Counted from the stretch's first letter, positions 12,840-51,400 are shown. The stretch is 64,000 nucleotides of DNA from Okamejei kenojei (GCA_035221665.1 CM069162.1:25544001-25608000), one strand, 5' to 3'. Notes: a model not told the origin generated them from the sequence alone. Program-made: numbers and translations.

Positions 12840-13930
12840 ATCCCAGCGCCAGCCTCACACCCAGAAAGGTTCCGGAGTCCGAGCAAAGACGCAAGACACA
12901 CGCTGCTCGCGAAAAACCAGGAACACTTTCCGCAATTTAACCAGAGACCGAGCCCAGCGGCGCGAGTTTGGAAGAAAGGTCGGATTTGCTATTGTGTCAA
13001 CGCAGTTAGGATTGTGTGATTCACGCGGTCTATTCGGAAATCGCCGGAATCCTGTCCCTCTGAGCGAGAGGTGCCCATGGCTTGAGGACAATTTGACAAT
13101 TCGACACCATGAGGTACAAAGTGCACAAAGCCCTCCGGGCAGGAACGGGATGGAGAGTTAGAACTTTAATCCCTCTCCTCATTCTGATCGTACAACCACC
13201 TCATTCCACAGGTAAACCACTGGTCGGCGTTTCTGTTCTATTTGAGTGCGCGTTCTGGGACAAGTGAAAGTTTGACTGGACAGCGACTCCTTAGAGACCG
13301 CTGGGGGGATGTATGTTTTTCCTCATGTAATTTCACAGCGTTTAAACAGTTTAGACTAAGCACGCTTGAAGAGGAACTTTAATGGAAAACGTTGCCAGGA
13401 CGTGTGCTTTAAAAGAAAATATATAGTGCAGCAGGAAAAAAAAAGATCGCGAGCCGAGATTTATATTCAATCATATAGTTGCAAAGAATTATTGTAGCTA
13501 CATCAACGAGTCGTGGATGTCCGCTGATTATGTTGTTGTTACTCTTCTGTGGGGAGGGGGAGGGGTTACTTAGAGTCAGACCTTTCAGCTGCCGTGGGGC
13601 AGAGGTTTGTTGCGGTAGTAATGACCTCGCTGGGACCTCCGGCAGTGTTTGGCCGGACCTACAAGGCATGAGCCCGGCCCCCAAAACCAATCTAAACCCC
13701 AGGGAGTACTGAACAACAAGAGGCAGGGCAACTTCCCGATCTCGCACTAATCGGACCGTTCGATCTGAAACCGATGCCATGGATCCCCAGGAAAAAGCGG
13801 GAGCGGAGCCTTGGCGTCTTGTGAATGCAGACGGCGAATGCGCTGCTCACTTGTGTAGGAGCCGTTACTTGGCAACCCCGGTGCGAAGCCGAGCGAACCC
13901 CCCTGGACTCGCCTCATGGCCTATGATGTC
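12840..13930 (+). promoter_or_regulatory. CpG-rich promoter/first-exon region of the mucin-domain gene
   Basis: Locally high CpG density in non-repetitive sequence against a CpG-poor background; surrounds the signal-peptide exon. Judged by eye, not computed. Confidence 0.55.
13109..13211 (+). CDS. First coding exon (signal peptide) of a secreted or membrane mucin-like glycoprotein
   Basis: Kozak context acaccATGa. Encodes MRYKVHKALRAGTGWRVRTLIPLLILIVQPPHST+g (basic n-region, hydrophobic h-region). Donor CAG|GTAAAC is phase 1, matching the phase-1 acceptor at 48426. Confidence 0.72.
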
Positions 13931-16863
13931 CATCCAATTCCAATGACCACTTTAGGATTCACTGAGCTCACCAGCTAATCATGTTAAAGTTCCCCTTCAA
14001 ATCCCTCCCTGTTCTTACACCTCCCAGTTTCAGTTACTTTTTGCAAACCCACTAGAGGACTTTGTGTTCCTGACTTTTTCCACCCCACCGTTGTTGGGTG
14101 TGCAAAAAAAAACTCTGAAACTTCCTCCGTCTACTTCCCACTCCTCACTCCTCAAACACTATCGCTTTAACCAAACTTTGGTTAAATGTACTTTCATAAC
14201 AAATCAGATACCACTCCTGTTTAGCCCTTCAGGGATGTATTATGATGTGAAATGAGAAGGATCTGGACCAGAGGAATCTGAGCAAGTGTGACTTTTCCTG
14301 TCTGGGAGACCTTTCCGAGAACGGTCAGACAATCGCGTCTATCTCAACAATGCGTCTCCCTTGCTGAAGGTGCCATGGGTTTCCAGCGCCCAGCAGAAAA
14401 CACACTCTGAACCCTCAGCAAATGGACTTGAATCCATGCCCTAAAGCTCTAAACTGACCGAGGTAACATTTTCCATTCGAGGAAGTTGACTTTCTGATTT
14501 CCATCTCCTCCAAATCAGAGAATTTGGGAAATGTTCTCCAGCACATTGATTTCTGAGACTCTAATATCAGACTTTTATAAAGCTGCTTGGTTTTTCAGAG
14601 CATTAATGTTAATGACATAAAAATCCAATAGATCTGCCAAAGAGCAAGGCAGACTTACCTAATGCCTTTCATTCCAAAGCACAATCTAATCAAGTTAACA
14701 ATTTTTAATTGTAGCCCCTGGTGTACTGTAGGATATAAGATGGTGTGGGAGACAGTTGTGTACAGCAAACATCCACAAAATGTAATTAGATAAATCGCTA
14801 AATAATAAATAGTTTGAGGAATTGATGCTGAGCAGGACTCTGAAAATCTTGTACATTTCTTCAAGAAAGCAACTTGGGATCTTCTACACTTCCCACAACC
14901 CGAGAGGGCACTTGGTGTAATCTCATTTAGAGTATAACACTAAAGACAGATGAGGACTTCCTCAGCATTGCACAGAATTCCCAGTCAGCTCTATAGATAG
15001 ACAGATGTTTGTGGGTTCAGTCAGAGTGCACCCACAAACATAGGACTTTGTCCATTTGAGCCAGACGAACAGTGCTGGGGGTGTAAGGGGTTTGAAAGAA
15101 TCACCAGCCTATTCCCAACATGGATAGGAAAGGTTTAGAGGGACAAGGCCAAATGCAAGTCAATGGGATTAGCTTAGACAAGGCATCTTGGTCAGCATGG
15201 ACAAGTTGGAGCCAAAAGGCCTGTTTCCGCGCTGTACGACTATGACACTAACAAAGAAAATCTTTCTCATTATCTTGCAAATGATATGTACCTTGGGAAA
15301 GGGCAATCTTTCTTTGGGATGATTATATGTCAGCTGTGATACTGAATTTCCTGCTGAAATACAGTAAAAACTATCAGTAGTTTGCTGTTTGTTTATATTT
15401 TGAATGGGGCAAGTTTTAAACTCCATTAACATTGATAAATAACAACAAAGTTTCCATTCAGAACAGTCTCCAATGTTACGCATGACTGTTTCAGATGATA
15501 AATTAGCCACATTTCTGAACAATGACTGAACTACCATTTTCCATACTGAAGTCACAGTTTCATAGTTATACATTGGACAAAGTTCAGCCATTATTGCTAA
15601 ACAGTTTTACCTTTGGCAAGAATCAGGCAAGGAATGATTTATGAAAGTATAGTTTGTTGCTGGATAACAAATAATTGTTATTGTCTGATAGAGTCTAGCA
15701 TTATTGGACATTTCATACTTTGAAATTCCAAAGTACTGTGGCATCTGCGTTGCCTTCCATGCTGAACTCACAGATAGAGCTACTGCACATCAGGGGCAAC
15801 ATATCAACAACAATTATCTTCAGCTAGCCTGCAGTCTAAATTGCTCCTTTTTACACCATAGATCTTGGTGTATTCTGTTGGGCTGCCAGTAATTGTGGGT
15901 AAACTCTATCCCTCACCATATCTTCTGGTTATGCAGGGGTGTCCACTGAAATCGTAGAAAGATTCTGATTCCAGGTGGAGTGGTGGAAATGAAACCTTGA
16001 GAATTGCTCACAATATGGCTCAATGAAATTAGCTTCAACTGGGGAGTAAGAATATGGCGGGGTGGTAATGGGGCAAGTTTGGTATGGAGATGGGGATAGA
16101 TGTGTTTTGAGATCTGAAAATATGATTGGAATTGAGTAGGTTTTGCCACAGTCTATGTTTGATGTGGAGGATGCTGTTGGTTGATGATTGTCACGGCCAC
16201 CAAGATACAGTGAAAAACTTTGTTTTGTGTACTATCCAGGGAAATCATACCATTTATAAGTACAATCATACTCGCTACATTAGTACAACAGGCAGCGTGA
16301 AAAAAAAGGAAATAAAGAGAGAGCAGAATAGTGTTAGAGCTACAGAGAAAATGCATATAAAAAAAATAATTCAAGGACCACTCTAAGATGGATTGGGAGG
16401 TCGGGAGTACATCCTTAGCACACGGGAGGTCCATCTGTTTCTCCCTATTCTACTTCTAAATTGCAGATTGCTTATGCTGATACTGTGACTCCTGGTTCAG
16501 GATTCAGCTTGGTGGTGGTGGGGTGGGGAATTTGGTTAACATTGCTCATATAGTTGCAAAGAATTAAGTGAAGACAAAAGCCAACCTAAAAAATAAATGT
16601 TTTTCACATTTCTGCTTCCTCCTGGAACATTGATGTTAAAACCATCCTGAGGGTTCTCAGCTGTCCCTTTTATGTAGGGTTAGGGGTTTGCAATTAGGCT
16701 GTCCCCACCTCCAGATCCTTCCGAATATGAAATTTAGTCAATCTCTTAACCTTTTAAAACAAATTGTGTTCTTCTGGTCATTCAACCGAATGAGATCATT
16801 TCACCCTTACTTCACTGAACCTATATCACTTCTTGCTTCGTCACCCGAACAATCAACATCCCT

Positions 16864-17206
16864 TAGATAGACACAAAAAGCTGGAGTAGCTCAGCGGGTC
16901 AGGCAGCATTTCTGGAGAAAAGGAATGTGATGTTTTGGGTCGAGACCCTTCTTCAGACTCAGTGGAAAGGGAAATTAGAGATATAGAAGGTAAATAGAAC
17001 AAATGAACGAAACATATGCAAAAAGCTGCGATGATCAAGGAATGGTGGAGCCCACAATGATCCATTGCTGGCCGTGGGATAGGTGAAAACGAGTTATACA
17101 GTGAAACTCAACAGGACGACGGTGAAACGAGTACAATGACTAGGGTGGGGGAGGGACGCAGAGAGAGGGGATGCAAAGGTTACTTGAAGTCAGAGACATC
17201 AATATT
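16864..17206 (-). repeat. Penelope-like element 3' terminal remnant
   Basis: Homologous to 25680-25980 (ORF end ...NIDFSNFK*). Carries the ctgaagaagggtctcgacccaaaac motif. Confidence 0.6.
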
Positions 17207-17664
17207 GTACTTTGCAGACTAATGCCAGATGATTGGCCTTTTGCTTTCCATTTTTGTTTCTTCCTTCTTTTTTGGTGTGGTGGGAGTATCATTTGTTAGC
17301 TTCCAATCATTGGATTCATTCTAAATTCAAGAGAATTCTGTAATCATTACTGAAACTACTTACTTTTAAATCCTAAGGCTTGGCATCTCAAATCTGAAGA
17401 ATTTATCAGCTATTTGGTTTGACTCATTTCTCCAGTATTAAATTAAATTTAAGTTCCTCATTCTCTTTTTTTTAATCACATTTTGAGTATCTTTCCCGAA
17501 TGTCAAGTTACTGCAATATTTATTTCCCAAATTTTGTCATCCTGTGTCAAGTAGTCCCATCCTTGTTATGGTTACTTGAGCCAACTCTTTTATCTTCAAA
17601 TGCACATCAAGAAATAGAACTTCCATATTTAAGAGAGACACAAGCAACAACAAATTAGACAGTA

Positions 17665-18468
17665 GACAATAAACAATGGGTGCAGCAGTAGACCATTCTG
17701 CCCCTCAAGCCAGCACCGCCATTCAATGTGATCACGGCTGATCACCCACAATCAGTACCCCGTTCCTGCCTTCTTCCCATATCCCTTGATTCCGCTACCT
17801 TTAAGAGCTCTGTCTAGCTCTCTCTTAAAAGCATCTAGAGAACCAGCTTTTACCGCCCTCTTTGGCAGAGAATTCCACAGACTCACAACTCTCTGTGTGA
17901 AAAAGATTTTCCTCATCTCTGTTCTAAATGGCTTACCCCTTATTCTTAAACTGTGGCCCCTGGTTCTGGACTCCCCCAACATCGGGAACATGTTTCCTGC
18001 CTCTAGTGTGTCCAAACCCTTAATAATCTTATATGTTTCAATAATATATCCTCTCATCCTTCTAAATTCCAGAGTATATAAGCCCAGCCGCTCCATTCTA
18101 TCAACATATGACAGTCCCGCCAAGCCGGGAATTAACCTGGTGAACCTGCGCTGCACTCCCTCAATAGCAAGAGCATCCTTCCTCAAATTGCGAGACCAAA
18201 TCTGCACACAACACTCCGAGTGTGGTCTCACTAGGGCCCTGAACAACTGCAGAAGGACCTCTTTGCTCCTATACTCAACTCCTCTAGTCATGAAGGCCAG
18301 CATGCCATTTGCTTTCTTTACTGCCTGCTGTACCTGCATGCTTACTTTTATTGACTGATGAACAAGGATCCCCAGATCCCGTTGTACTTCCCCTTTGTCC
18401 AACTTGATTCCATTTAGATAATAAGCAGCCTTCCTGTTTTTGCCACCAAAGTGGATAACCTCACATTT
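17665..18468 (-). mobile_element. CR1 LINE 3' fragment (RT C-terminal region)
   Basis: ORF 17752-18402: RDLGILV...KKANGML...LVRPHSECCVQIW...VQRRFTRLIP...TRGHSL...WNSLP, followed by a 3' UTR and (ttgtcta)-type tail. Confidence 0.9.
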
Positions 18469-24210: not shown

Positions 24211-25989
24211 AAAAATAGCTATTGATTTTCAGCTGTTAGTAAGTAAGTAAGTTTATTGGCCAAGTATTCACATACAAGGAATTTGCCTTGGTGATTGCTG
24301 TTATCTGAAGAAGGGATTAAGATTTAAACGTTTTTAATCTATTGCATGCTATGTTTATTTCAGTTCTGTTTCCTCTTAAGACTTACTGATTTACGTCAAT
24401 AAAGTTACTAAATTCTGAAGCTGCTGCTGCGTTATGTGCTTAGTCTTTTGATGTACTGATACTGTATTCCTTTTAATTGTTTTAGTAACTATTACTTTGA
24501 AAGTTATTTTTGAATGTATTTTTCCTGTGTATTGTGGTAAATGATTTGTGTCTGAAAGAAATATTCAGCTGGTTTGAGATGTAGAATTTAGTGATCATTT
24601 GTTCACCACACTGGGGATGTGATTGCTCAGAGGATGGTGCATAAGAGATTCACCCGGATGTTGCCTGAGATGGAATGATTTAGCCATGAGAAGGACTGGA
24701 TAGACTGGGCTTGTTTTCTATTATATATTTTTTACAGATTAGTATGAACAAGGGTCCCACCAGAAAACATAATCTGTCCATTCCTTTTACACATGCTGCC
24801 TGACCTGCTAAGTTCTTCAGCACTTTGCGTTTTGATCAAGATTTCAGCATCTGCAGTTCCTTGTGTCTCCTCTTTTGTTTTCCTTCGAGAAGGTTGAAAG
24901 GACACATGATCAAATATGAGGATGGATCATGAGAATCCTTTTACTTTAGTAGGAACCAGAAGGCAGCGGGAAGAGCTAAGAGAATGAGAGAGTATTTTTT
25001 CTCCCCGAGGGTGATTGAAATCTGGAAAGTACTAACTGTGGTGATGGTGGAGGCTGGTACTCTCACCTTATTTAAAAGATGAGCAAAGAGGACCATAGAC
25101 CAAGTGCTGGGAAATTGGATTAGTATTGCTCGCTGGGCCAAACAGCCTGTTTCCATATTGTATGACTCTATACCTGACAGACTTTGATGAAAGGTGCAGC
25201 TTCAAATGGAATTTTTATCAACACAGACTGTTAAAGTGGAACTATCTATCAGCAAAATCTCTTATCAGCAAATGGATTAGCTCCTTCAGAGAGGAGAAGC
25301 GTGACATGCTGATTTTAAGAGTATTTGATGGCTATGTTAAGGACAGGTCATTCACCCCTCTCACAATTCACCTCAGGCATGGTCACCCACTTTCAACCTC
25401 TGTTTTATAATTCCTACCATTATCATTTTAGTTATAATGTCAGAGTATTCAGCATGGAAACAGGCCCTTCGGAGCAGCTTGCCCATGCCAACCAAAGTGC
25501 CTCAGCTACATTAGTCCCACCTGCACGCTTTTGGCCCATGTTCCTCTAAATCATTCTTATCCATAATCAAATGTCTTTTAAATGTTATTATAGTTTCTGC
25601 CTCAACTATTTCCTCTGGCCGCTCATTACATGTATCCACCACCCTCTGTGTGAAAAGGTTGCTGATTAGATTCCGCTTACAACTCAGCGGTATGAATATT
25701 GATTTCTCTAACTTCAAGTAACACTTGCTTTCCCTCTCTCTCTGTCCCTCTCTCACCCTAGTTCTTTGACTAGTTTCACTGTCCTTCTGATTAATTTTAC
25801 TGATTGTATGCCTCGTTGTCACCTTCCCCTCATCTAACTGAATCATTCTACATTTCCTTATTTTGTCTGCTTTGATCTGTTGTTTCACACCTTACCCTTC
25901 CATATCTGTAGTCTCGACCCAAAATGTCACCCATTCCTTCTCTCCAGAGATGCTGCCTGTCCCGCTGAGTTACTCCAGCATTAAGATCT

Positions 25990-26809: not shown

Positions 26810-29800
26810 TGCTTGTAAAAAGTTGATAAAAGGAGACCAAATCTTTAAGAATTGGTCTACTTTGCCTAGTAGGAGGAATCTCATTTATTCAATATGTAGC
26901 GTTTCAGACATGTTTGAGATCCACATTTTGAATGTTTTTCCAAAATTTAAGTATGTTTTTTTGCTGTTATTAGACCATAATTAAGAAAAGCTTCTTGGAA
27001 TATAGTTAGTTTATTTCCCTCTTCCATTGATCCAAAGATAATCAATTCTGTATTGGGGTTCAATTTTGTGTTAAATAGTTTTGTAAAAATTCCAAAGATT
27101 TCATTCCAAAATTTATACATTTTTGTACACGAGACAAAGGAATGTACCACAGTGACATTTTGAGTTAGAGATTTGTCGTAGATGGGGGAAACATTTGAAA
27201 ATATTTTATTCAGTCTTGTTTTCGAATAATATAATCTATGTAAAATTTTAAATTGAATTAGGTTATGTCTTACATTCATTGAACATTTGTTTACATATAA
27301 TAAATTTTTATCCCATCTATCATTCGGAATTTTTATCAATAACTCTTGTTCCCAGTCTCTTCTAATTGCCTCTGTCGTTGGTGTTTCTATATTTAGAATT
27401 ATATTATATAAGTAAGATATTCAATTGCTTGATTCTGCCTTTCTATTCATTCCTTCCTCCAATAGATCTGGGGTTAAGGTTTGATATCCTTGTATATACT
27501 TTTTCAAATAATCTTGAATATGAAAGTATTTGAAATAATGATTACTTTTCAAATTATATTTTAGTTGTAGTTGTTAGAATGATAAAAAATTTCCTATTTC
27601 ATACATATCTCCCATCGTTTTAATTCCTATTCTTTCCCAATGGATAAACGGTTTATCAATAATGGATGGTTTGAATGAGGGATTATTAGCTATTGGAGAA
27701 AGGAGCGATAATTTTCTTAATTTTAAAGTTAATTTTATTTGTTTCCAAATTTGTATTATACTATGAATAATTGGACTCTTCTTGTATATTATATTGTTCA
27801 GTTTTATCGGGGAAAGAAGGATCGCTCCTATATTATAAGGGGAACAATCCTCTTTCTCCATTCTTATCCAATCTACCTGTTCGGCAGAACTGTCCAACCA
27901 GTAGATTACATTTTTAATATTCACTGCCCAATAATAATACAATAAGTTAGGGAGTGTCAGTCCCCCTGATTCTTTAGATTTACACAAGTGTTTTTTTTTT
28001 TAAATTCTGTGTGATTTATAATCCCATATGAAGTTTATAATATCAGAATCTAATTTTTTGAAGATTTTATTAGGTAAGTATATTGGTATTGATTGAAGTA
28101 GGTACAATATTTGTGGTAAGAAGATCATTTTTATCGCGTTTATTCTGCCTATTAAAGACATTGGCAGTGTCTTCCAAAATTTAATCAACCCATTTAATTT
28201 AGTTAATAAAGGCATATAGTTTGCGTTGAGTAATGACTTATATTTCCTAGTAATTTGGATACCCAAATACTTAAATTTTTCTGTTGTAATTCTAAAAGGG
28301 AATTTCAACAGATGTGTCGACTCTTGAGGTTATATCGTCATAATTTCGCTTTTGTTCCAATTTATTCTATATCCTGAAAAAGAACCAAATTCCTCTATTA
28401 AATTTAGTATATTTGGTATGCTAATTTGCGAATTTGTATACTTTCAGCTAAAGGCGCGATAACGCGCACCCCTGCCTATTGCCCCTTGCTAATTGGAATT
28501 TCGGGGATAATATATTATTAGTCAGTATTCTAGCCGTCGGCTTATCATATAATAATTTTACCCATGAAATAAAATTATCTCCCATGTTAGATTTTTGCAA
28601 TACTATGAATAAATATTGCCATTCTACTTGATCAAAAGCTTTTTCTGTATCCAATGAAATAATTGCTAGTTCTTCTTCAGTATTATGTGAGTACATTATA
28701 TTAGACAGCCGTCTCAAATTGTTAAATGAGTATCTCTTTGGTATGAACCCAGTTTGGTCCGGATTTATTAGTTTACTAATATATTTACTCAATCTTCTCG
28801 CTAATATTTTTAATATTTTTTGGTCTGTATTTAGGAGTGCAATAGCTCTATATGAGCCTGGGTCTTATAGATCTTTATCCTTTTTTGGTATAAGTGTAAT
28901 AGTTGACTCGGTTAGTGTTTCTGGTAGTTTATTTTCTTTAAAAGTGTATATATATAAATCTTGCAACCGTGGAGAAATTATCTCGTAGAATCTTTTATAG
29001 AATTAATTACTAAAGCCATCTGGTCCTGGCGTTTTGCCACTCTTCAACGAACTAATTGTTTCTTCTATTTCCTGTAGTGTAATCTGAGCTCCTAAAGCCT
29101 CTTGTTCCACCATATTTAATTTTGGAAGATTACACTTATCTAAGAAATTTGTAATTTGAGTATTATTTGCAGAGGTTTTCGATGCATATAAATTTTGATA
29201 AAATTGAGCAAATCTTTTATTAATATCTTTAGGTAGTGTTAATAATTATCCTTTGTCTGATTTAATTTTAGTAATTGTATTTTCTGTTTCCCGTTTTTTC
29301 AGTTGGCGTGCTAAGAGTTTATGAGGTTTATCACCAAATTCAAAATTTTCTTGTTTTGTAATTTGAAATAATCTTATTATTCTGGCCGATAAAATTTTAT
29401 TTAACTTATATTTTAGTATTATTATCTCATTATGTTTATCTATAGTTGTTTCTTTGGCATTTTCTAAATCTAATTGTCTAATTTCTAGTTCTAACTGCAA
29501 TTGTTCAGTATTATTCTTTTTATTTTGAAAGCTTGATATGAGATTATAGTTCCTCTAATAAATGCCTTAAAAGTTTCCCATAATAAGGAGCGTGAAATAT
29601 CTGGTGTATCATTTGTCTCAAAGAAGAATCTCATCTGTTCTTTTAAATATGTGCAACCTTGTGAATTATTTAAAATTTGGGGGTTAAACCTCCAAAACGA
29701 ATTTTTATCAGGCATTCCTTCTAATTTTAAAGAAAAGGTTAATGGGGAATGATCAGAAATAATACTATTATGATATTTAGAATTATATGTATATGGAATT

Positions 29801-30448
29801 AGTTTTGTTTCCACTAAGAAATAATCAATACATGAATATATTTGATGTACTGTTGAATAAAATGAATATTCCCTACCTACTGGGTTAGCGATCCTCCATA
29901 CATCTGTTATATTAGTATTTTTCATGTATGTATTTAGGAGTTCACTCGTTTTAGATTTTATGTTAGTCCTTTTTTGTTTTGCTGATTTATCCAGATATGG
30001 ATCTAAAACACAATTCAAATCTCCGCCTATTATCACATTTTGATGATTATTTCCAAAATTTTACTAAAGAATTGGGGGTTGTCAAAATTAGGAGCATAAA
30101 TATTTATCAAAGTAAGTGGAGTAGAATAAATTTCTACCATGACAATGACGTACCTCCCCTCTTTATCTGCTATAGTATTCTTTAATTTAAATGGTATACC
30201 TTTACGAATGATAATAGCCATGCCTCTAGATTTAGAAGTAAATGAAGTATGTTTGCCCAATCCAATTTGCCTTCAGTCTTATCTGTGTTTGATATTTCAG
30301 ATGCATCTCTTGTAAGAAAATAATATCACTGTTTAAGGCTTTTAATTGGGCAAAGATCTTACCACCTTTTAATTGGTTCATTAGCGCCCCTTATATTCCA
30401 ACTACAAAATGTGATTCCTCCAGTTTTCTTTTGTTTATCATCTTGCAT
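26810..30448 (-). pseudogene. L1 ORF2 (APE endonuclease + reverse transcriptase), disrupted
   Basis: INIYAPN, IIGGDLN, IDYFL, SDH (APE); DQTGF, SLDTEKAFD, RQGC, KYLGIQI (RT). Many frameshifts, and the YADD segment appears deleted near 28440. Confidence 0.9.
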
Positions 30449-31193: not shown

Positions 31194-32160
31194 TTAAATA
31201 TTATCTGCAGACTCTAAAATTCTGTCTGCAAATGTAGCAGGCTCCGCCAGCGGCTTATTATAAAACCTTTGGAAAGTTCTTTCCGAGGACCATCCTGCTC
31301 TGGCCAGAATATGGTCCATAGGCACATCCATTCGCCTAGCCGCCGACGTAGATGCAGCCCTGGTGGAATGAGATTTGTACACATTAGTATCGACTCCCGC
31401 GGACTTAAGCACCTGCTTGAGCCACCTTGAAATGGTTTGGCTCGTCACCTGACCATGAGGCTTCTTGTGGCTTATCCATAAGGCTTTTTCTCTCCCTCTT
31501 AAGTTATATGTTGTGTCTATGTAGTTGGCGAGATGGGTCTTGGCACACAACCCGGAACTCCATAACTGGAGGCGTGGTACCTGGTCTAGTTTGTTTGACC
31601 AGTCCCTGAATGTGAAATGTGATACAGTCCAATGACTCTGTCATGCTGTCCAGCCTCAGAAGGTGGAGGGACTGTACCCTTTGAGCTGACACTAGAGCCA
31701 TGAGCATGACTGATTTCAGTGTAAGTTGTTCCAGAGTAAGTGACCTGGGTGGTGGCCATCCCCTAAGGTACGTCAGTACTATGCTGACATCCCAGATCTG
31801 AGTGTACCTAGGCCTAGGGGAATTGGTGTTAAAAATGCCCCTCATGATTTTGACCACTAGTGGATGGGACCCCAAAGTCAGTTGTCCTGCTGCTGGAACC
31901 AAATAAGCTGACAACGCACTCCTGGCTGTATTAATGGCGCTGTAGCTGAGTCCTTCCCGATGTAATCCAACCAGAAACTCCACAACACTGGTGGCTGTAG
32001 CTGTAGTGTAGGTAGTTCCTGTTTTGGAGCAATACCGTTCCCATTTTCTTATGTTGGTCAGGTATTGTCTCCTGGTGGATTCCCGGTGGGATGCGGTCAT
32101 CATGTTGATGGCGTCCTCAGACAGTCCCAGGCCCAGTAGAGGTCTTTTTAGAATCTGCAA
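31194..32160 (-). CDS. DIRS tyrosine recombinase, frameshifted near 31545
   Basis: SAM-like N-terminal part (YSAINTARSALS). Catalytic R (AQRVQSL), HxxR (HSTR), W (AGWS) and Y (FQRFY) are present across ORFs 31504-32160 and 31194-31550. Confidence 0.9.
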
Positions 32161-34190
32161 GTCAGGAGATTGACTCTGTCATGGCACGGGTGACTAATGC
32201 CTGACACTGGGTGGATTAATAACTGTCGACTGCTGGGGAATTCCAACGGTGTTTCAACAGCCATGTCGAAAGCCACTGGGAACCATAGCTGTGTAGGCCA
32301 GTCAGGTATTATCAAGATTCCTGAAGCGGAATCCAATTGAATCTTGCGTAATACCCGACTGATGAGGCAGAAGGGAGGAAAAGCATAAAAGAACATTTTC
32401 CCCCAATGCAGCGAGAATGCATCAACTGCTGCTGCCTCAGGGTCTGGTTCCCAAGCGACATACGTTGGTACCTGGTGATTCAGCCTGGATGCAAATAGAT
32501 CGATATCTGGTGTGCCATATTGCTTTGTAATTTCAGCAAATACTTTGGGATTTAACATCCATTCGATGTTATCATTAAATCTACGTGACCTGGTGTCTGC
32601 CACTGTATTTTGCTTACCTGGTAGGTAAGTTGCTGATAACCAAATATGCCTTTTAACACACCATTGCCAGATTAGGTTGGCCAAATTGTCACACGATATC
32701 GACTTTACACCATCCATGTGATTGATATAAGCCACCACCACCGTGGTATTATCTAGTTGCAACCGGACATGTGCATGATGCGTATTAGATGAATATGCTT
32801 TTAACCCATAAAACGCACCCAACATTTCTAAATAGTTGATACCCCATGTCTGTAGGCAAGATGATTCAAATTTATTCCATCTGCCCCCTGTGCTGGATTG
32901 CATGTTAGTTGCTCCCCAGCCCAAAGCACTGGCATCCGTTTGAATGGTTAATACTGGGTTGGTGATCATTATGGGACTGGAGCTGAGTCTTACGTTCCTT
33001 GCCCACCATTGTAACTCTGGAATGGATTCAGCAGTTAAACTCATAGCTCGGTCAAAGTGACCTGAGTTTTGCTTTAGTGCATGCACTTTAGCTCTTTGCA
33101 AATTTTGATAGTGCAAAGGCCCAAATTGTACGGCTGGAAAAGCTGCTACCATTTTGTCAATAACTCTAGCTACTTCCCGTATGGTTGGCTGATGTTTATT
33201 CATGAGTTCGTTGCATGATAGCGCCAATTCTGATGCTTTCCCCTTCGGCAGAGTTACAATCATGCGAACAGTATCTATCGTAAATCCAAGATAGTCCATG
33301 GCAGTGGATGGTGTAAGATTGGATTTATCTGGATGTATGACAAACCCCAAAGTTTCAAACAAACGTTTGGTGGCTGCTACTGCCAGAATGGCTGTCTCCA
33401 AGGTTTTCCCTACTATTAAAATGTCGTCTAAATACGCCATGACTATATGCTTTTGTTTCCTCAATAATGCCAAGGCAGGTTTTAAGATTTTAGTGAACAA
33501 CCTTGGAGCAGAGGTTAGCCCATTTGCTAAGGCTTTATATTGCCATAGCTGTTTCATCCAGATAAATTTTAAATATTTTCGATGCTCCTTGTGTATGGGT
33601 ACTGAGTAGTAGGCATCTTTTAAATCAATGCTTGCTAGAAAGTACCCTCTAGAAACCAATAGTCTGGCTGTTTCAAAAGTATCCATCTTGAAATGTATAT
33701 ACCTGACAGACTTGTTCAAAGTAGTTAAGTTAATGATGATGCGTCGTCCACCATCTTTTTTGATTTTAGTGAAAATATTAGACACAAATTCCAAAGGTTC
33801 ATGTTTTGTTCTTTCAATGACACCTTTAGCTTATAACCTCATCAGTTCAGCTTGACCCTCTTGTTTCTCCTTGACTGAGAGGGTGAATACCCTTTTGGGC
33901 ATATGCTGAACTGGTGGAAAATTTTTATGGACAAAGTCAATTTTGTAGCCATGAACGCTGCTGAGTATATACTTGTCATTAGTGATGGATTCCCATGCAT
34001 CCAAAAACAAGTGCAATCTCCCCCCTGTTAGTACAGAGCCCCTACTGCACATATGCTGAGAGGAACCAGACCCACCTACCTCCATGGTTATTGGTGCTTC
34101 TTCTGCCTCTTCGCTGGGCGATGAGGCGTCTGCTGGGCTGTAGAGGGTTGATGTTGATCTCGATGTTGTTGGGGGTGGCGCATTTTCCAT
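32148..34190 (-). CDS. DIRS pol: reverse transcriptase, RNase H and Dam-like methyltransferase domain; one in-frame stop at 33831-33833
   Basis: GGRL...W, IDLKDAYY, YLDD (RT); TDAS..GWG, INYLE, DNTT (RNase H); DLFAS...DAF...YAFPPF (MT-like). ORFs 33831-34190 and 32148-33794 share a frame. Confidence 0.92.
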
Positions 34191-35330
34191 GGGGTCCGCT
34201 CTGGGCCCTGGCCTAAAAAAGGCTTACGGGGAATGGTTGCGGACCCCGAGCTTTCACCAGTCCCATAGTGTGGTCGACGACTGGTGGACGCCATGGGGTA
34301 CTGCCGCCTGGGTTTGTTGGGTCTGCTCGGTCCCAAACCTGCCCTCACGAGACCAAAGGTCTTGGATTCTTCTTCCAGGTCTTTCACCTTTTTTGGAAGG
34401 TCTTTCCCAAAGAGCAGAATAGGAGGTTCTGACCCCGGTGTTTTGCAAAGTCCCGCAAATTTAGGGTTGAGGGCAGGCTTGATAATCTCCTTTCGCAAAT
34501 TATTTATTTCATATTGAGTGGTGCACAGCAGAGCTAATGTGTCTTGCTGATTTGTGGAGATGTCCGCACCATCAATGGACCGAGCATAAGATGTTATTCC
34601 TGCAGTCAGGAGTTTAAGGATCTTCTGGAGCTTCAACTCCAGGTTTCTGATGTTCTGCTCCAAATGTCCCCAAATTTGGCTATTGACAGCAGGTACATTC
34701 AAAGATGTACAATTTACTGGGGCTGTATATAGTTGAAGAGCCTCATTGACCACCTGTTCTTGTAGGGGTTTAGAGGACAGGTGGTTAATGCTGGCTGCAA
34801 GTTTCGGCTCTAATGGCCGACCCGCTTGTGGAATGGCCACGTAGCGGTTGACCACACCCAGCAGCTCTTCCTGTTCCTGTACACCCTGCGTACTCCCGAT
34901 ATCTTCAGCCAGTGATCCCTCTTCTTGACCAGCCCAGACCTGGTCGCCAATGCTGCCTTCAAAAGAAGGTGAAGCAATGGCCAGTGCCGTAAAAGGCACT
35001 GCGGGAGTGCCTGAGCTCCCTTGGCGAGTCTGCTGCTGCTCTCTCAGCAGATCTCGCTGGAGTAATTGCTCCATAAGCCGTTCCATGCGGCTTAGGCGGC
35101 TGCCTGTGCCGCTCTTGAGCGGTGAGGCATCTTCATCCGAATCGTCGGACACTACTGCCCGGTTCTGGCTGCAGGTACCTCCAGCCCGCTGCTCAGGCAG
35201 CACTAGCGGTGCTGGGCTCGGCACGGTAGTTATACCCGCCGCCTCTTGCCCCCCCCCCCTCCAAAGAGCATTCCTCAACGGAGGACGAACGGGGGCGAGC
35301 TGCAGACTTCTTTCCTCTGGTCTTGCTCAT
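34088..35330 (-). CDS. DIRS gag-like ORF1 with a +1 frameshift in a G11 run
   Basis: ATG at 35330 (MSKTRGKKSAARPRSSSVEECSLEGGG) joins the 396-aa ORF 34088-35278 if one G is removed. Lies upstream of and overlaps pol, as in DIRS1. Confidence 0.75.
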
Positions 35331-38412: not shown

Positions 38413-38494
38413 AACAGCTGAATTACAGTCAGATTTCAGCAGTTTGTAGTGATTTTATATTGTGTTGATATTGTATCCTGTGTAAGGGGGGAGT

Positions 38495-39427
38495 ATGAAG
38501 GCCAGGGCAGTGTACTGTTCTGGATGTCAGATGAGGGAGGTCAGGGAATTTGATAGCCCTCCAGACGTCCACATGTGCGCCAGGTGTGTCGAGATGGGGC
38601 TCCTAATGGACTGTGTTAGGAACCTGGAGCAGCAGCTCGATGACCTCCATCTGGTCAGGGAGAGTGAGGAGGTCATAGAGAGGAGCTACAGGGAGGTAGT
38701 CACTCCCAGACCACAGGAGGCAGACAAGTGGGTCACAGTTAGGAAGGGCAAGGGGCAGAGGCAAGGGCTAGAGAGTACCCCTGTGACCGTACACCTGGAA
38801 AATAGGTACTCGGGTTTGAGTACGATTGGAGGGGACAGCCTAGCTGGGGGCAGCAACAGCGGCCGGGCCTCCGGCACAGAGACCGGCCCTGATGCTCAGA
38901 AGGGTAGCAAAAAGAGGAGGGCAATTGTAATACGGGACTTTATAGTTAGGGGGTCGGATAGGCGATTCTGTGGACGCAGTTGGGAGACCTGGATGGTAGT
39001 TTGCCTCCCTGGTGCCAGGGTCTCGCATGTGTCAGAACGTGTCCAAAAGATTCTGATAAGGGAGGGAGAGGAGCCTGATGTTGTGGTACACATAGGTACC
39101 AATGACATAGGCAGAAAAAGTGACGAGGTCCTGAAGGGAGAATTTAGGGAGTTGGGGGGAAAGTTAAGGAGAAGGACCAAAAGGGTAACGATTTCAGGAT
39201 TGCTGCCTGTGCCGCGTGACAGTGAGAGTAGGAATGAAATGAGGTGGAGGATAAATGCGTGGCTGGGGGACTGGTGCAGTGGGCAGGGATTCAAGTTCCT
39301 TGATCACTGGGACCTCTTTTGGAGAAGGCATGATCTGTACACAAAGGACGGGTTGCACTTGAACCCGAGGGGGACCAATATCCTGGCAGGGAGATTTGCA
39401 AAGGCTACTGGGGAGACTTTAAACTAG
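38495..39427 (+). CDS. CR1 ORF1p: Cys-rich finger + coiled coil + SGNH esterase-like domain
   Basis: CSGC...CARC; IVIRDF (degenerate GDS block), CLPGA, HIGTND, DGLHLN. Open 310-aa frame. Confidence 0.88.
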   Translation: MKARAVYCSGCQMREVREFDSPPDVHMCARCVEMGLLMDCVRNLEQQLDDLHLVRESEEVIERSYREVVTPRPQEADKWVTVRKGKGQRQGLESTPVTVHLENRYSGLSTIGGDSLAGGSNSGRASGTETGPDAQKGSKKRRAIVIRDFIVRGSDRRFCGRSWETWMVVCLPGARVSHVSERVQKILIREGEEPDVVVHIGTNDIGRKSDEVLKGEFRELGGKLRRRTKRVTISGLLPVPRDSESRNEMRWRINAWLGDWCSGQGFKFLDHWDLFWRRHDLYTKDGLHLNPRGTNILAGRFAKATGETLN

Positions 39428-39474
39428 AAAGGCTGGGGGGAGGGACTCGGGTAGAGGGGGCTAGGGGTCAGGGT

Positions 39475-42437
39475 GTGGGGCAAGAGGCAGAGAAGGGAAA
39501 CACTCGGACCCAAAATGTAGGTGAGAAAGATGAAAAAGATAATAGACAGAGAATAAGGGATGGTGGGTTTCTAAAATGTGTATATTTTAATGCTAGGAGC
39601 ATTGTAAGTAAGGTGGATGAACTTAGAGCCTGGATTGACACCTGGAAATATGATGTTGTGGCAATCAGTGAAACATGGTTGCAGGAGGGCTGTGATTGGA
39701 AACTAAATATTCCAGGATTTCGTTGATTCAGGTGTGATAGAATTGGAGGGACCAGAGGGGGAGGTGTTGCATTGCTTGTCAGAGAGGATATTACAGCAGT
39801 GCTTTGGCAGGATAGATTAGAGGGCTCGTCTAGGGAGGCTATTTGGGTGGAACTGAGAAGTGGGAATGGTGTAGCAACACTTTTAGGGGTGTACTATAGA
39901 CTGCCAAATGGGGAGCGAAAATTGGAAGAGCAAATATGTAAGGAGATAGCAGATATTAGTAGTAAGCACAAGGTAGTGATTGTGGGAGATTTTAATTTTC
40001 CAAAAATAGACTGGGAAACACATTCTGTAAATGGGCTGGATGGTTTGGAGTTTGTAAAATGTGTGCAGGATAGTTTTTTGCAGCAGTACATAGAGGTATC
40101 GACCAGAGAAGGGGCAGTGCTGGACCTCCTGTTAGGAAATGAGGCAGGTCAGGTGACGGAGGTATGCGTTGGTGAGCACTTCGGGACCAGTGATCACAAT
40201 ACCATTAGTTTCAATATAATTATGGAGAGTGTCAGAACTGGACCTAGGGTGGAGATTTTTGATTGGAGAAAGGCTAACTTTGAGGGAATGCGTAAGGATT
40301 TTAAAGGAGTGAATTGGGACACTTTGTTTCATGGGAAGGATGTAGAAGAGAAATGGAGGACATTTAAAGGGAAAATTGTAAGAGTACAGAATCTTTATGT
40401 CCCTGTTAGATTGAAAGGAAATAGTAAAAAATTGGAAAGAGCCATGGTTTTCAAGGGAAATTGGACACTTGTTTCAAAAAAGAGAGATATCTACAATAAT
40501 TATAGGAGGCATGGAGTAAATGAGGTGCTAGAGGAGTATAAAGAATGTAAAAAGAATCTTAAGAAAGAAATTAGGAAGGCTAAAAGAAGATATGAGGTTG
40601 CTTTGGCAAGAAAGGTGAAAGTAAATCCAAAGGGTTTCTACAGCTATATTAATAGCAAAAGGATAACGAGGGATAAAATTGGACCATTAGAGAACCAGAA
40701 TGGACAGCTATCTGCAGAGCCAAAAGAGATGGGGGAGATATTGAACAATTTCTTTTCTTCGGTATTCACCAAGGAGAAGGATATTGAACTCTGAGGTAAG
40801 GGAAAAAAGTAGAGTAGCTATGGAAACAATGAGATTCAAAGAGGAGGAAGTACTGACACTTTTGAAAAATATAAAAGTGGATAAGTCTCCAGGTCCTGAC
40901 AGGATATTCCCTAGGACACTGAGGGAAGTTAGTGTAGAAATAGCAGGAGCTATGACAGAAATATTTCAAATGTTATTAGAAACGGGAATAGTGCCGGAGG
41001 ATTGGCGTACTGCGCATGTTGTTCCATTGTTTAAAAAGGGTTCAAAGAATAAACCTAGCAATTATAGACCTATTAGTTTGACGTCAGTGGTGGGCAAATT
41101 AATGGAAAGGATACTTAGAGATAATATATATAAGCATCTGGATAAACAGGGTCTGATCAGGAACAGTCAACATGGATTTGTGCCTGAAAGGTCATGTTTG
41201 ACAAACCTTCTTGAATTTTTTGAAGCGGTAACTAGGGAAATTGATGAGGGTTAAAGCAGTGGATGTTGTCTATATGGATTTCAGTAAGGACTTTGACAAG
41301 GTTCCCCATGGAAGGTTGGTTAAGAAGGTTCAATCTTTGGGTGTTAATGGCGGAGTAGCAAGATGGATTCAACAGTGGCTGAATGGAAGATGTCAGAGAG
41401 TAATGGTGGATGGCTGTTTGTCAGGTTGGAAGCCGGTGACCAGTGGGGTGCCTCAGGGATCTGTGTTGGGTCCACTGTTGTTTGTCATGTACATCAATGA
41501 TCTGGATGATGCGGTGGAAAATTGGATAAGTAAGTATGTAGATGATACTAAGATAGGTGGTGTTGTGGATAATGAATTAGATTTTCAAAGTCTACAGAGA
41601 GATTTGGGCCATTTGGAAAAGTGGGCTGAAAGATGGCAGATGGAGTTTAATGCTGTTAAGTGTGAAGTGCTACATCTTGGCAGGACAAATCAAAATAGGA
41701 CGTACACGGTAAATGGTAGGGAATTGAGGAATGCTGTGGAACAGAGGGATCTAGGAATAACTGTTCATAGTTCCCTGAAGGTGGAATCGCATGTAGATAG
41801 GGTGGTAAAGAAAGCCTTTGGTGTGATGGCCTTTATAAATCAGAGCATTGAATATAGGAGTAGGGAAGTAATGTTAAAATTGTACAAGGCATTGGTAAGA
41901 CCAATTCTGGAGTATGGTGTACAATTTTGGTCGCCTAATTATAGGAAGGATGTCAACAAAGTAGAGAGAGTACAGAGGAGATTTACTAGAATGTTGCCAG
42001 GGTTCCAGCAACTATGTTACAGAGAAAGGTTGAACAAGTTAGGTCTTTATTCTTTGGAGCACAGAAGGTTAAGGGGGGACTTGATTGAGGTCTTTAAAAT
42101 GATGAAAGGGATAGACAGAGTTGACGTGGATAAGTTTTTCCCATTGAGGGTAGGGAAGATTCAAACAAGAGGGCATGACATGAGAATTAAGGGACAGAAG
42201 TTTAGGGGTAACGTGAGGGGGAACTTCTTTACTCAGAGGGTGGTGGCTGTGTGGAATGAGCTTCCAGCAGAAGTGGTGGAGGCAGGATTGATTTTAACAT
42301 TTAAAGGTAAAGTGGATAGGTATATGGACGTGAAGGGAATGGAGGGGTATGGTCTGAGTGCAGGTAGATGGGACGAGGGGAAAACAAATGGCCGGCACGG
42401 ACTGGAAGGGCCGAGAGGGCCTGTTTCCGTGCTGTAA
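39475..42437 (+). pseudogene. CR1 ORF2 (APE + RT) with a stop and frameshifts
   Basis: YFNARSI, ISETW, VGDFN, SDH, KSPGPD, NYRPISLTS, GVPQGSVLGP, YVDD. TGA at 39724; frameshifts near 40790 and 41250. Confidence 0.92.
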
Positions 42438-45684: not shown

Positions 45685-45875
45685 AAACGGCAGATGCTGG
45701 TTTACAAAATCCCCCACAAAATCCTGGTGTAATTCAGCAGGTCAGGCAGCATCCCTGGAGAACATGGATAGGTGATGATTCGGGTCAGGATCCTTATTCG
45801 GACTGAATCAGTCTGAAGAAGGGCCCTGACCCGAAATGTCCCTGACCCGCTGTGGTACTCCAGCACTTTGTGTCC
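45685..45875. repeat. Second Penelope-derived inverted-repeat pair, within a degraded CR1 ORF2 remnant (~45580-46490)
   Basis: ...tcgggtcaggatccttattcggactga / tcagtctgaagaagggccctgacccgaaatgtc... Flanks resemble CR1 ORF2 (cagtcaacatggattt...tcatgtttg). Confidence 0.6.
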
Positions 45876-47499
45876 TTTTTTCAGGAGAAAACATAACAGG
45901 GAACAGGAAAAATGGCAAAAAGAATAAAATAAGTAGTTAGATTATGTCTTCACAGAGGAGAATACGTTACATTACAGAAATCTTCGAATACAAGAATCTG
46001 ACACTAAAGAAAATTAGGATTTGTAAGTAATGACACTGAATGCTGATAAACACAGAGCATAATAATTTATATTATCCCAGAGGAGAAAAAGTGGATGCAT
46101 TGATTGTCAAATTTCCAGAATTCTATCATTCTCTCAGATGGGAGAGCGACAGGAGGAACTCTACAATAGTAAAAAGAAGGGAGAGAGAATACTGGGAACT
46201 ACACCCTGGTTGGCCTGTATCTTCCCTAACATATATAGTGGAGAAAATGCTTGGAACTATTAACATTTCAATGTGATTAGACAGTCAACATGGATTTCTG
46301 GATGTGAAATCATGTTTGCCAAAGCTATTGCAGTTATTGTAAGATCAAGACTGGAGTACCACTGAATGAGGCTGTTGCTACTAAATGCCAATGTTTTCAA
46401 ATGTAATATTAAAAGTTTGCTGAAGAAACCAAACTTGGTGAGATTGTGAATTGTGAGGAGTCTTCAAGGTGACTGAGACAGGATGGGTATGTGGGCTGTT
46501 GGAGGGATTGCTGTATTCGACCTGCACCCTGAATCTGGCTTTGATATAGGGCCCAGTTCCCCTCTTAATTAGTCCTCAGATCGGGACTGCACACAGAGAA
46601 AATCTTGTAATACAGTGGGGAGTTTCAAAAACATGTCCCTGTAAACATGATGGAAGTTAAAATCCTCCACTACGAAAACACCAACAATCTTATATCTTTC
46701 TAATTTGTCTACATCTCTGCTCTGCTTTCTCTTGTTGAGTTTTATGAGGCCTATGGTATATTTCCATCAAAATAAGTGTCCCATTTTCATTCCTAATCTC
46801 TGCCCTAATGGTCTAATGTGAAGAACCTTCCAGGATATCCTGTCTCAGTACCACGACAATGGATTATTTAATCAATCGTACAAAGCCATCTCTTCTTTTC
46901 CATCTCCCGAACCATTTCATTGACCTCCAACATTGCACCATGAAACCTTGAGTTGACAGTTCTGGCTTTCCTTCAGTCATATTTCGGTGATTCTTCAGCC
47001 AAATTTGTTTAAACCTTTTTCCACTGCAAACCTGACTCCAAAGATCTTGGACTCATTCTGGTTCAATACAATCCATCTAGCTTCTACAGTTTCACCTTCC
47101 CAAGGAACAATCCAGATATCTAATGAACATGCTCCTACACCATTCCTGTTGTGACAAATCATCCCAATTGACCTGATATGAGTTGCTTTCAAGTCCATTC
47201 TATAATGAGCCTCAGATTTTGTTTCTGACTCCACCAGACAAGTACAAAAATCAAGAGCAATTTGTGCAGAAATAACAGTCATTCATTTATCATATAGAAT
47301 TGAAGTGAATTAATATATTGCACTTCTTTCATTTCATTGAAGTTTAAATCAGACACCTAAAATATACATCTGAACAAATTTTCTTCTTCACAAGTAACAT
47401 CATACAAATCCCGTAAAACTGCCCCACTGTGAAGTGAATATTGTTGGCTTTTACCACTATTTCCCTCAAACATTTCAACAGAAATAGGTTCTGAACCTG

Positions 47500-48115
47500 T
47501 GCACAAAGAAGGCAAACGCAATGCTGGCATTTATTTCCAGAGGGCTAGAATACAAAAACGGGGATGTAATGCTGAGCCTCGATAAGGTGCTGGTCAGTCT
47601 GGATTTGGAGTATTGTGAGCAATTTTGGGCACCATATGTAAGGAGGGATGAGCTGGCACTGGAGAGAGTCCAGAGGAGGTTTACAAGAATTATCCCAGGA
47701 ATGAGTGTGTTAAAATATGATGAACATTTGATGGCACTGGGCTTGTACTCGCTGGAGTTTAGAAGAATGAGGGGGGACCTCATTAAAACCGACTGAATAG
47801 TGAAAGGCTTGGATAGAGTGAATGAGGAGAATCTAGGACTAGAAGTCATACCTTACGTACGTTCCTTTAGGAAGGAGATGCGAAGGAATTTCTTTAGTCA
47901 GAGGGTGGTGAGTGTGGATTCTTTTGCCACAGAAGGCTGTGAAGGCCAACAGATATTTTTAAGGCAGTGAGAGATAGATTCTTGATGAGTACTGGTGTCA
48001 GGGGTTAAGGGGAGAAGGGATAGGAGGGAGAGATACATCAGCCATGAGTAAATGGCAGAGTCGACTTGTAGGGCCAAATGGCCTACTTCTGCTCCTATCA
48101 CTTATGACCTTTTAA
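47500..48115 (+). mobile_element. CR1 LINE 3' fragment
   Basis: MLAFISRGLEYK...LEYCEQFWAPY...VQRRFTRIIP...RMRGDLI plus a 3' UTR. Confidence 0.85.
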
Positions 48116-48426
48116 CCTTATGCACGGAGCTCTGTTTCCGCTGAGTCATATGGAGTTGGCAGTGGAGTCCTGTGATTCCACATGACTACTCAGAACCGAC
48201 AGCAGGGCAGAGGTGGCAAAGGACTGAAACACAATTGATTAACTTTAATATTTTTAATTCCTTCCAAATATTACTTCATTCACTAGAGGGCACCTTCGTT
48301 GGCATGGATGAATTGGGTAGAAAGATGTGTTTACATGATTATAACTATGATAATGACTTTAATTTCAACAATATTTTCAACTGTGTCTCCATCAAAAAAT
48401 AATTATAACTCAATTTGCATTGATAG

Positions 48427-51400
48427 CTGAACATCCATCAAGCACAAATGTCACGTCAAGATGGGATTCAACATCAGAAAGCAACCAAACGACAGAAGCA
48501 TCATCAATATCCAAACCTTCAAAAGAAGGAAACTCAGAATCATCTCAAACAGCAGAATCACACACAAGAGACGGCTCCACTCCAGAAACAACTCGAAAAA
48601 CCCAGCATTCATCACAAAACTCAACAAGCACAATACTTAATTCTTCAGAAAATGTGTCCGTTTCAGAACCTCATTTCATGACACAATTATCAGTCACGAC
48701 ACATTCCTCATCGGAATCATATTCCACATCAACAGAACCTTCATCAGAACCACATCCTACAATAGCAGCATCCACGATTGCCACATCCTCTCAGGCAACA
48801 ACTCCAAAAACCCAGCAATCTGCAAGAACTGAACTTTCATCACAATCCAATCCAAGCACAACCTCCACATCGACACAGGTTTCATCAAAAACTGAATCAC
48901 CCTCAGAAATCCATCAGACCACAGAAGTGCATTCAAGCTCCTTGTCCTCATCAAAAACACATCCAACAACATTACACGAATCATCATCAACAGAGCTTCC
49001 AACAACAGCATATCCAGCATTGACAACCGCTTCATCTGTTAGTGTGTCCCCATCTGAAACCCACCTAACAACAACACCACTATCATCGCCAACTCAGTCC
49101 TCAGCAGAGACCTATTCAACAACAGAAACATCCACAAACAAACCTTCATCAGAAACACATCCAACAACAGTGGAATCGCCAAGCACACAGCATACAACTC
49201 AAGCACATCAAAGCTCAACTGAAGTTTCATCAGCCACTGTGTCGCCAGTTGAATCCCACTCCGCAACTTCATCACTTTCATTGGTTACTGAATCCCCATC
49301 AGAAACACGTTCAACATCTGCACAAGCATCAGTGACAACTGAAACGTCATCAGAATCCCATCCAACTACAGAGGCATCACGAATCACAATGACCTCTTCA
49401 GAAAGACAGCCGACAGCACATGAATCATCAAGTACAGAGCAGTCAACACAAACTCATGGAACAACATCAGAAATTCCCTCAGAAAGTGCGTCATCATCAA
49501 AATCCCTCGCAACAGCAACAACGTCACCTTTGGTCACTGAGAGCTCAGCGGTAACTTATTCTCAATCATCGCAAATCACATCCTCCAACAAATCTGCAAT
49601 AGTCTCACATCCAACGACAGAAGAATCATCGATCACCGTCTCCTCACCTGAAGCACATCAGACAAATACACAGGAACCTTATACATCGACTTATCCAAAG
49701 ACAACACAAGCTTCAACAGAAACTATTTTGACAACCGAAACACATTTAACAACACCTATCTCAAAGGAAACGGAGCCTCCATCAGTAACCTACCCACGCA
49801 CAACAGAAGGCTTATCCACAACAGAATTTTCCTCACCAACACCGAATGGTAGACAGGCATCAGCAACCACATTGTCCACAGCTGAAACACGGTCAAAAAT
49901 ACAGGAATCAATAGGAACGGAGCATTCAACACAAACCATTGCAAGCACGACACAGATTTCTTCAGAGAGTGTGTCCGTTTCAGAACCACATTTCACAACG
50001 CAATTTTCAGGCACGACACATTCCTCATCGGAATCATATTCCACATCAGTGAAAGCTTCCTCAACAACAGAACCTTCATCACAATCACATCCTACCGAAG
50101 CAGCATCCACAATTGCCACATCCTCTCTGGAAACAACTCCAAAAACCCAGCAATCTTCAAGAACTGAACTTTCATCACAATCCAATCCAAACACAACCAA
50201 TTATTCGTCAGTCACCGAGTCCTCTTCAGAAACACATTTAACAACATCAAGTTTATCACAGCTAACCGAGTCCTCAACAGAAACATACTCCACATCGACA
50301 CAGGTTTCATCAAAATCTGAATCACCCTCAGAAATCCATCAGACCACAGAAGTGCCTTCAAGCTCCTTGTCCTCATCAAAAACACATCCAACAACATTAC
50401 ACGAATCATCATCAACAGAGCTGACAACAACAGCATATCCAGCATTGACAACCGCTTCATCTGTTAGTGTGTCCCCATCTGAAACCCACCTAACAACAAC
50501 ACCACTATCATCGCCAACTCAGTCCTCAGCAGAGACCTATCCAACAACACAAACATCCACAAACAAACCTTCATCAGAAACACATCCAACAACAGTGGAA
50601 TCGTCAAGCACACAGCATACAAATCAAGCACATCAAAGCTCAACTGTAGTTTCATCAGTCACTGTGTCGCCAGTTGAATCCCACTCCGCAACTTCATCAT
50701 TTTCATTGGTTACTGAATCCCCATCAGAAACACGTTCAACATCTGCACAAGCATCAGGGACAACTGAAACTTCATCGGAATCCCATCCAACTACAGAGGC
50801 ATCACGAATCACAATGTCCTCTTCAGAAAGACAGCCGACAGCACATGAATCATCAAGTACAGAGCAGTCAACACAAACTCATGGAACAACATCAGAAATT
50901 CCCTCAGAAAGTGCGTCATCATCAAAATCCCTCGCAACAGCAACAACGTCACCTTTGGTCACTGAGAGCTCAGCGGTAACTTATTCTCAATCATCGCAAA
51001 TTACATCCTCCAACAAATCTGCAATAGTCTCACATCCAACGACAGAAGAATCATCGATCACCGTCTCCTCACCTGAAGCACATCAGACAAATACACAGGA
51101 ACCTTATACATCGACTTATCCAAAGACAACACAAGCTTCAACAGAAACTATTTTGACAACAGAAACACATTTAACAACACCAATCTCAAAGGAAACGGAG
51201 CCTCCATCAGTAACCTACCCACGCACAACAGAAGGCTTATCCACAACAGAATTTTCCTCACCAACACCGAATGGTAGACAGGCATCAGCAACCACATTGT
51301 CCACAGCTGAAACACGGTCAGAAACGCAGGAATCAATAAGAACGGGAGCATTCAACACAAACCATTGCAAGCACGCCACAGAATTCTTCAGAGAGTGTGT

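Follow-up and report, generated by a model that had tools for sequence, protein, structure and literature searches.

A candidate signal-peptide exon for a giant MUC3/12/17-type membrane mucin gene of Okamejei kenojei, probably a paralog of the ACHE-linked cluster

INTRODUCTION

The closest described relatives of the gene examined here are the human membrane mucins MUC3A, MUC3B, MUC12, and MUC17. According to PMC9578598 and PMC13643018, their cluster at 7q22 is placed between ACHE and TRIM56/SERPINE1. MUC17 has the domain order PTS-EGF-SEA-EGF-TM-tail (PMC13643018), the PTS exon of MUC3B, exon 2, measures 39,267 bp (PMC9578598), and human MUC12 alleles encode proteins of up to 23,080 aa (PMC13345508). 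The MUC3 cluster has been suggested to have arisen in amphibians (PMC9578598), and MUC3, MUC12, and MUC17 have been reported absent in fish (PMC1552070); the available part of PMC4948705 mentions neither MUC3 nor MUC17. PMC3680472 presents the sea bream I-Muc as a mucin of the SEA-TM kind that has no clear mammalian ortholog. Our search by title and start of abstract, mostly in journals outside subscription, returned no paper describing a shark or ray mucin of the MUC3/17 type.

Here, we follow up an earlier note on a window of 64,000 nucleotides (C32:25544001-25608000; coordinates above 64000 continue the window numbering), which had pointed to a hidden signal-peptide exon far upstream of a mucin-like exon. 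In our view, 13109-13211 is likely to be the first exon, coding for the signal peptide, of a MUC3/12/17-type gene that has 10 exons and a predicted protein of ~14,900 residues.

RESULTS

Domain architecture and family identity

The giant exon starts within the window, and the exons that follow it were read in three loci beyond the window end (L003, L005, and L006):

48427-48862, + strand: start of the PTS exon, with a phase-1 acceptor and a unique Ser/Thr-rich lead-in
48863 to ~91497, + strand: tandem array of 1425-bp (475-aa) units, 29 full copies plus 1263 bp
End of exon 2, to 92063, + strand: EGF-like domain 1, with six Cys, weak Pfam EGF matches, and a urokinase EGF match
92530-92651, + strand: SEA exon, phase 1>0
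107884-107948, + strand: SEA exon, phase 0>2
109208-109404, + strand: SEA exon, phase 2>1
109876-110038, + strand: EGF-like 2 exon, phase 1>2
111103-111264, + strand: transmembrane exon, phase 2>2, mean hydropathy 3.44 over 21 aa
113064-113134, + strand: tail exon, phase 2>1
114166-114317, + strand: tail exon, phase 1>0
114425-114469, + strand: last tail exon, ending in TGA

When joined, the last part of exon 2 and exons 3 to 10 encode 376 aa with no internal stop, with the second Cys-rich module (EGF-like 2) spread over exons 6 and 7. A HMMER search with one downstream exon returned nine proteins, six of which are fish mucin-like; the remaining three (P0002, P0006, and P0007) were dropped as unrelated repeat proteins. 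Identity over the 376-aa part is 68% to a sawfish “mucin-17” (P0001; Pristis pectinata XP_051895312.1), 62% to a hypothetical catshark protein (P0013; Scyliorhinus torazame scyTo_0020580), 58% to a hypothetical bamboo shark protein (P0004; Chiloscyllium punctatum GCC35035.1), and 49% to a chimaera “mucin-3A/4-like” protein (P0011; Callorhinchus milii XP_007896060). The closest of them being the sawfish protein, a ray-like fish is indicated. The best matches outside the cartilaginous fishes are three teleost proteins (P0003, P0005, and P0009; 34 to 41%); in P0005 and P0009, one of the Cys pairs that follow the SEA domain is missing. In the ESM Atlas, the top clusters for P0001 are of the “mucin-12” and “mucin-3A” types, the former perhaps being P0001’s own.

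The SEA domain is assigned here because of the 62% identity to the catshark protein, in which the stretch 571-646 scores above the Pfam SEA cutoff. P0003 also exceeds this cutoff and P0004 and P0008 fall below it, and Pfam SEA gave no match on P0001, P0005, or P0009, on the single exons of this gene, or at this locus. A PDB search with the family profile retrieved the EGF module only and no SEA structure, and a protein search with the EGF-like 2 exon alone yielded no candidate. The predicted SEA cleavage site reads G-S-I-I-I, with G-S-I invariant in all eight homologs. A class I PDZ-binding end takes the form S/T-x-hydrophobic; the protein predicted here ends in PVEQ, and none of seven homologs has such an end.

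All the cartilaginous-fish models share the EGF-SEA-EGF-TM-tail order and a GSI[IVL] motif with this gene, and by this likeness the sawfish, shark, and chimaera models are very likely its orthologs. Their first residues fall within the PTS region or at, or shortly beyond, EGF-like domain 1, without a signal peptide, and an N terminus is absent from every database model of relatives examined; the present locus complements these models with a candidate for the 5' end and with a size for the repeat exon. Judged by its predicted domains, the gene is a membrane mucin of the MUC3/12/17 type and hence a known kind of gene. Like human MUC3A, MUC3B, MUC12, and MUC17, it combines a giant PTS exon, a SEA domain between two EGF-like domains, one membrane pass, and a short tail. 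Differences are that EGF-like domain 1 is fused to the PTS exon, unlike in the human cluster genes, that there are 10 exons rather than the 12 of MUC3A/B, and that the SEA site is GSIII rather than the GS[V/I]VV of the MUC3/12/17 type. By its description, I-Muc of sea bream may belong to the same lineage.

The earlier note had likened the locus to podocalyxin/CD34-type sialomucins and held its identity to be not determinable. The sequence downstream of the window supplies that identity. In podocalyxin and CD34, a mucin exon does come after the signal exon, and this layout, with its long intron, is what a podocalyxin/CD34/endoglycan-type reading has in its favor; with downstream exons that encode EGF-SEA-EGF-TM, and with all four genome matches of Pfam CD34_antigen (PF06365) lying on C16 and C21 and none at this locus, such a reading is scarcely credible. 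MUC13 has two EGF domains after SEA, compared with one here. It adjoins HEG1 (PMC1552070), a gene that we did not locate in the genome and that is not among the nearest neighbors found at this locus.

A predicted giant PTS exon built of 475-residue repeats

As assembled, the PTS exon (48427-92063) measures 43,637 nt and ends with EGF-like domain 1 and a phase-1 donor. The array, an uninterrupted run of ~30 units of 1425 bp, places the PTS domain on a single exon, with a frame predicted to stay open past assembly indels; with uniform 1425-bp units, the exon would measure 43,590 nt and the predicted protein ~14,890 aa. Tandem Repeats Finder, limited to periods of 500, is blind to this repeat. 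The 475-aa consensus consists of 26% Ser, 23% Thr, and 7% Pro (56% S/T/P) and 10% Glu, with neither Cys nor stops. Its unit is far from the 17 aa of MUC3 and the ~68 aa of MUC17 (4073 aa, 60 repeats). The exon is large yet sets no record, given the length of the human MUC12 alleles. By eye, the unit at 48863-50287 and the PTS region of the catshark protein P0013 have similar Ser/Thr/Glu motifs, a hint that the repeat may be older than the shark-ray split.

The first open frame from the start of the PTS exon stops at 51593, and we count 104 indels in the 30 copies, three positions of which are seen again in at least three copies, as might be expected of a decaying pseudogene with real frameshifts. 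This reading is nevertheless very improbable. Most of the indels are of 1 bp (97) and of homopolymer type by our own rule (72), and they are most frequent in copies 11 to 14 and lacking in copies 1, 25, 27, and 30. None of the 101 distinct substitutions creates a stop, against 4.1 expected, which is mild evidence for coding constraint on the array. Exons 3 to 10 are intact, and a gap-free circular contig of 1425 bp was obtained independently in each of four public runs (X1-X4; one study, probably of DNA, two of the runs being flagged as such). Compared with copy 1, these circular contigs carry the array consensus at 20 of the 30 differences listed, and the other 10 create no stop. The array frameshifts look like assembly errors.

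A candidate first exon in a CpG-rich stretch

The 5' part of the locus and its neighbors comprise the following features, with negative positions lying upstream of the window:

-85 and -81 kb (L029:4909-5088 and 8786-8875), + strand: exons of an SGPP-like PAP2 gene (Pfam PAP2; SGPP is our own reading)
-23.9 kb (L023:233-550), + strand: last exon of MRPS16 (Pfam S16)
12000-14000, no strand: CpG-rich, non-repeated stretch, likely promoter (o/e and GC in 500-bp bins)
13109-13211, + strand: probable first coding exon, encoding a predicted signal peptide in 34 codons plus 1 nt, phase-1 donor
131.7 kb (L007:7675-7788), + strand: exon of the ODAD1/CCDC63 family, downstream neighbor

The ATG at 13109, the length of 103 nt, the phase-1 donor CAG/GTAAAC, and the signal-like translation that had been described for the exon are all present. 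The translation follows a heuristic n/h/c pattern with a basic n-region of 19 aa, a hydrophobic core of ~10 aa, and a polar c-region. The frame cannot begin further 5' because of an in-frame TGA at 13094-13096, 15 nt upstream of the ATG. Of the good Kozak context claimed for this ATG, the A at -3 holds, yet +4 is also A. A two-codon upstream ORF, out of frame at 13077-13085 and 32 nt 5' of the ATG, could lower translation from it. The exon is non-repeated, with one match in the genome. The CpG-rich island reported around it is real as a CpG-rich stretch but modest as an island (o/e 0.71 to 0.95 and GC 42 to 55% in 500-bp bins over 12.0 to 14.0 kb); together with a second block at ~10.0 to 11.5 kb, it is the only one from -21.5 kb to 35 kb.

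Between -81 kb and 13.1 kb, 248 ORFs lie outside repeats; of the 150 longest, which we scanned, four had Pfam matches, to S16, SCAN, zf-CCHC, and, below threshold, Lge1. Neither these ORFs nor exon scans, which short exons may escape, revealed a competing coding gene between MRPS16 and the mucin, and the same kinds of scan found no minus-strand gene starting from the CpG-rich block. The obvious candidate promoter is therefore this block, with the mucin as the sole coding gene that we found behind it. The SCAN and zinc-knuckle frames (L021:8089-9142, + strand), just 5' of the window, are probably part of an LTR retroelement. Another exon-like frame (L015:6132-6464, minus strand) has no Pfam match; we take it to resemble a Gfo/Idh/MocA oxidoreductase.

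To place exon 1 among its possible competitors, we scanned ~123 kb of the + strand (-75 kb to 48.4 kb) for open candidates running from an ATG to a phase-1 GT, using rough home-made splice and hydropathy scores with thresholds chosen after exon 1 was known. Two of 1352 candidates pass, compared with 0 of 1239 in the minus-strand control; one is exon 1, and the other is repeat-masked and has a poor Kozak context. Within a looser list of 41 candidates, six phase-1 entries lie downstream of MRPS16, and exon 1 is the sole unmasked one. A very loose scan of 36 to 48.4 kb with GC donors included produced nine entries, seven in a CR1/L2-like element and two weak ones with GC donors, none better than exon 1. 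Exon 1 is the best signal-exon candidate in the 123 kb.

At loose thresholds, 27 hydrophobic candidates on the + strand face 18 on the minus strand, which is chance level, and hydrophobicity alone is therefore no evidence. Such counts would suit a chance signal-like frame, or part of an unrecognized, perhaps noncoding, transcript from the CpG promoter, with the true first exon of the mucin elsewhere. The CpG-rich block indeed has several further donor-like sites, signal exons lie 2 to 3 kb from the PTS exon in relatives, and exon 1 has no homolog in our searches: with its flanking codons, it gave one candidate in the protein database and none at E<=1, and the ESM Atlas query gave no usable match. 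We regard this alternative as unlikely, since no better candidate exists near 48427, even with GC donors, since Met is missing from the PTS frame ahead of residue 106, and since the distance can be explained by an intron swollen with retroelements.

The predicted junction and putative intron 1

13212-48426, + strand: putative intron 1, 35.2 kb, 38% self-repeat-masked
26947-30060, minus strand: broken L1-like LINE inside intron 1, Pfam domains
31194-35326, minus strand: DIRS-like retroelement in intron 1, bearing long frames of gag-like, reverse-transcriptase, and tyrosine-recombinase type
38486-42437, + strand: CR1/L2-like LINE with esterase-type ORF1 inside intron 1, Pfam domains

Across the proposed join, the final G of exon 1 and the CT at 48427 form an Ala codon in the long frame rich in Ser and Thr, as the earlier note had proposed and as the joined sequence verifies. 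The joined peptide reads S-T-A and then E-H-P; cleavage sites of signal peptidase are described by the (-3,-1) rule, which this predicted junction fits. The acceptor at 48427 is pyrimidine-poor (score, -2.1) and ends an AG-free zone of 102 nt; among the intron's 2319 AG gaps, 7 are at least this long, the present one included.

Reverse-transcriptase, endonuclease, and tyrosine-recombinase frames from at least three retroelements, the class names of which are our own reading of Pfam domains, occupy parts of intron 1. The 35-kb distance from signal to PTS exon would be explained because these elements swelled the intron. By comparison, human MUC3B has its N-terminal part within just 2,187 bp 5' of the PTS exon (PMC9578598); a paralog on C42 has its signal-like candidate ~3 kb ahead of the PTS frame. 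The public runs X1-X4 cover the repeat unit and leave 48409-48812 uncovered, and they are therefore uninformative on the 13211-48427 junction. Two other runs, X5 and X6, with their small shares, provide no evidence.

That further exons might intervene had been allowed for from the start, and an unmasked, weak candidate at 24486-24536 (scores 2.2/2.2) upholds that reservation. In human MUC17, the PTS exon is exon 3 (PMC9578598), so that the same gene could here, too, have at least one small phase-1 exon between 13211 and 48427, and any exon with an acceptor as weak as that at 48427 would escape our scan. This version of the gene is quite unlikely, given that just four candidates came up, three of them in retroelements and the fourth not Ser/Thr-rich, and that the direct 13211-48427 join already provides a good cleavage site. 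By the direct join, exon 1 and the mucin exon likely pair in one gene through a predicted splice. The corresponding claim of the earlier note holds as a probable one, by the best-candidate scan, the lack of a competing coding gene from MRPS16 to the mucin, and the similar exon of the C42 paralog.

A second set of mucin genes beside ACHE

The SGPP-like, MRPS16, and ODAD1-like neighbors of this gene are ones that we presume to lie on different human chromosomes. ACHE is located on C42 and not at this locus, and in the 390 kb beside it (C42:12.97-13.36 Mb; L041-L079) we observe six mucin-type transmembrane exons together with PTS, EGF, and SEA exons, hence a cluster of at least six membrane mucin genes, which lies ~80 kb from the ACHE T-peptide exon. 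Two of these genes show the phases of the present one (SEA 1>0, 0>2, and 2>1; TM 2>2; tail 2>1), and one has a phase-1 signal-like exon ~3 kb 5' of its PTS frame. They differ in that EGF-like domain 1 occupies a separate exon and in that sequence similarity to this gene is faint. In one cluster gene, the third SEA exon (C42:13090945, minus strand) reads G-C-I-I-V, with Cys at the expected autocleavage Ser. None of the 80 matches listed on C42 is a serpin, leaving the SERPINE1 flank unconfirmed.

Judging from these exons and their position, C42 probably holds the true MUC3/12/17 cluster. The gene at our locus, unlike the human cluster, is not beside ACHE, was found as a single copy (the chimaera protein has four matches in the genome, all at this locus), and ends without a class I PDZ motif. 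From its position and tail, we regard it as a probable paralog, and not an ortholog, of the ACHE-linked cluster: it sits between MRPS16 and the ODAD1-like gene and lacks a PDZ tail, while the C42 cluster adjoins ACHE.

DISCUSSION

In the model that we propose, the transcript would be spliced from 13211 to 48427, the array would be read as one open frame across the assembly indels, and the signal peptide would be cleaved after the junction Ala. From knowledge of the family (PMC13643018), the protein would then be imported into the ER, its repeat densely O-glycosylated, and its SEA domain self-cleaved between G and S into two non-covalently held chains, and it would be displayed on the epithelial surface as an apical bottle-brush glycocalyx that can be shed under force. 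Lacking a PDZ end, it would be retained at the membrane by means other than those of MUC17. If it scales as MUC17 does (4073 aa, up to 1 µm), its extended length would be ~3.5 µm.

On balance, we lean toward viewing this gene as a nearly complete model of a second, unnamed MUC3/17-type lineage, one retained outside the ACHE locus by rays, sharks, chimaera, and teleosts, mislabeled “mucin-17/3A,” and characterized here by a repeat of 475 residues and a promoter in a CpG island. The locus provides a candidate 5' end and a scale for a gene whose models in four cartilaginous fishes begin mid-protein, and it suggests that the database label “mucin-17” hides a paralog. If the second-lineage reading is true, the six-gene cluster on the ACHE side would date the MUC3 cluster to the first jawed vertebrates rather than to amphibians. 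Likewise, if C42 carries the true cluster, the mucins of the gut glycocalyx would have had their cluster since the ancestor of jawed vertebrates rather than since amphibians.
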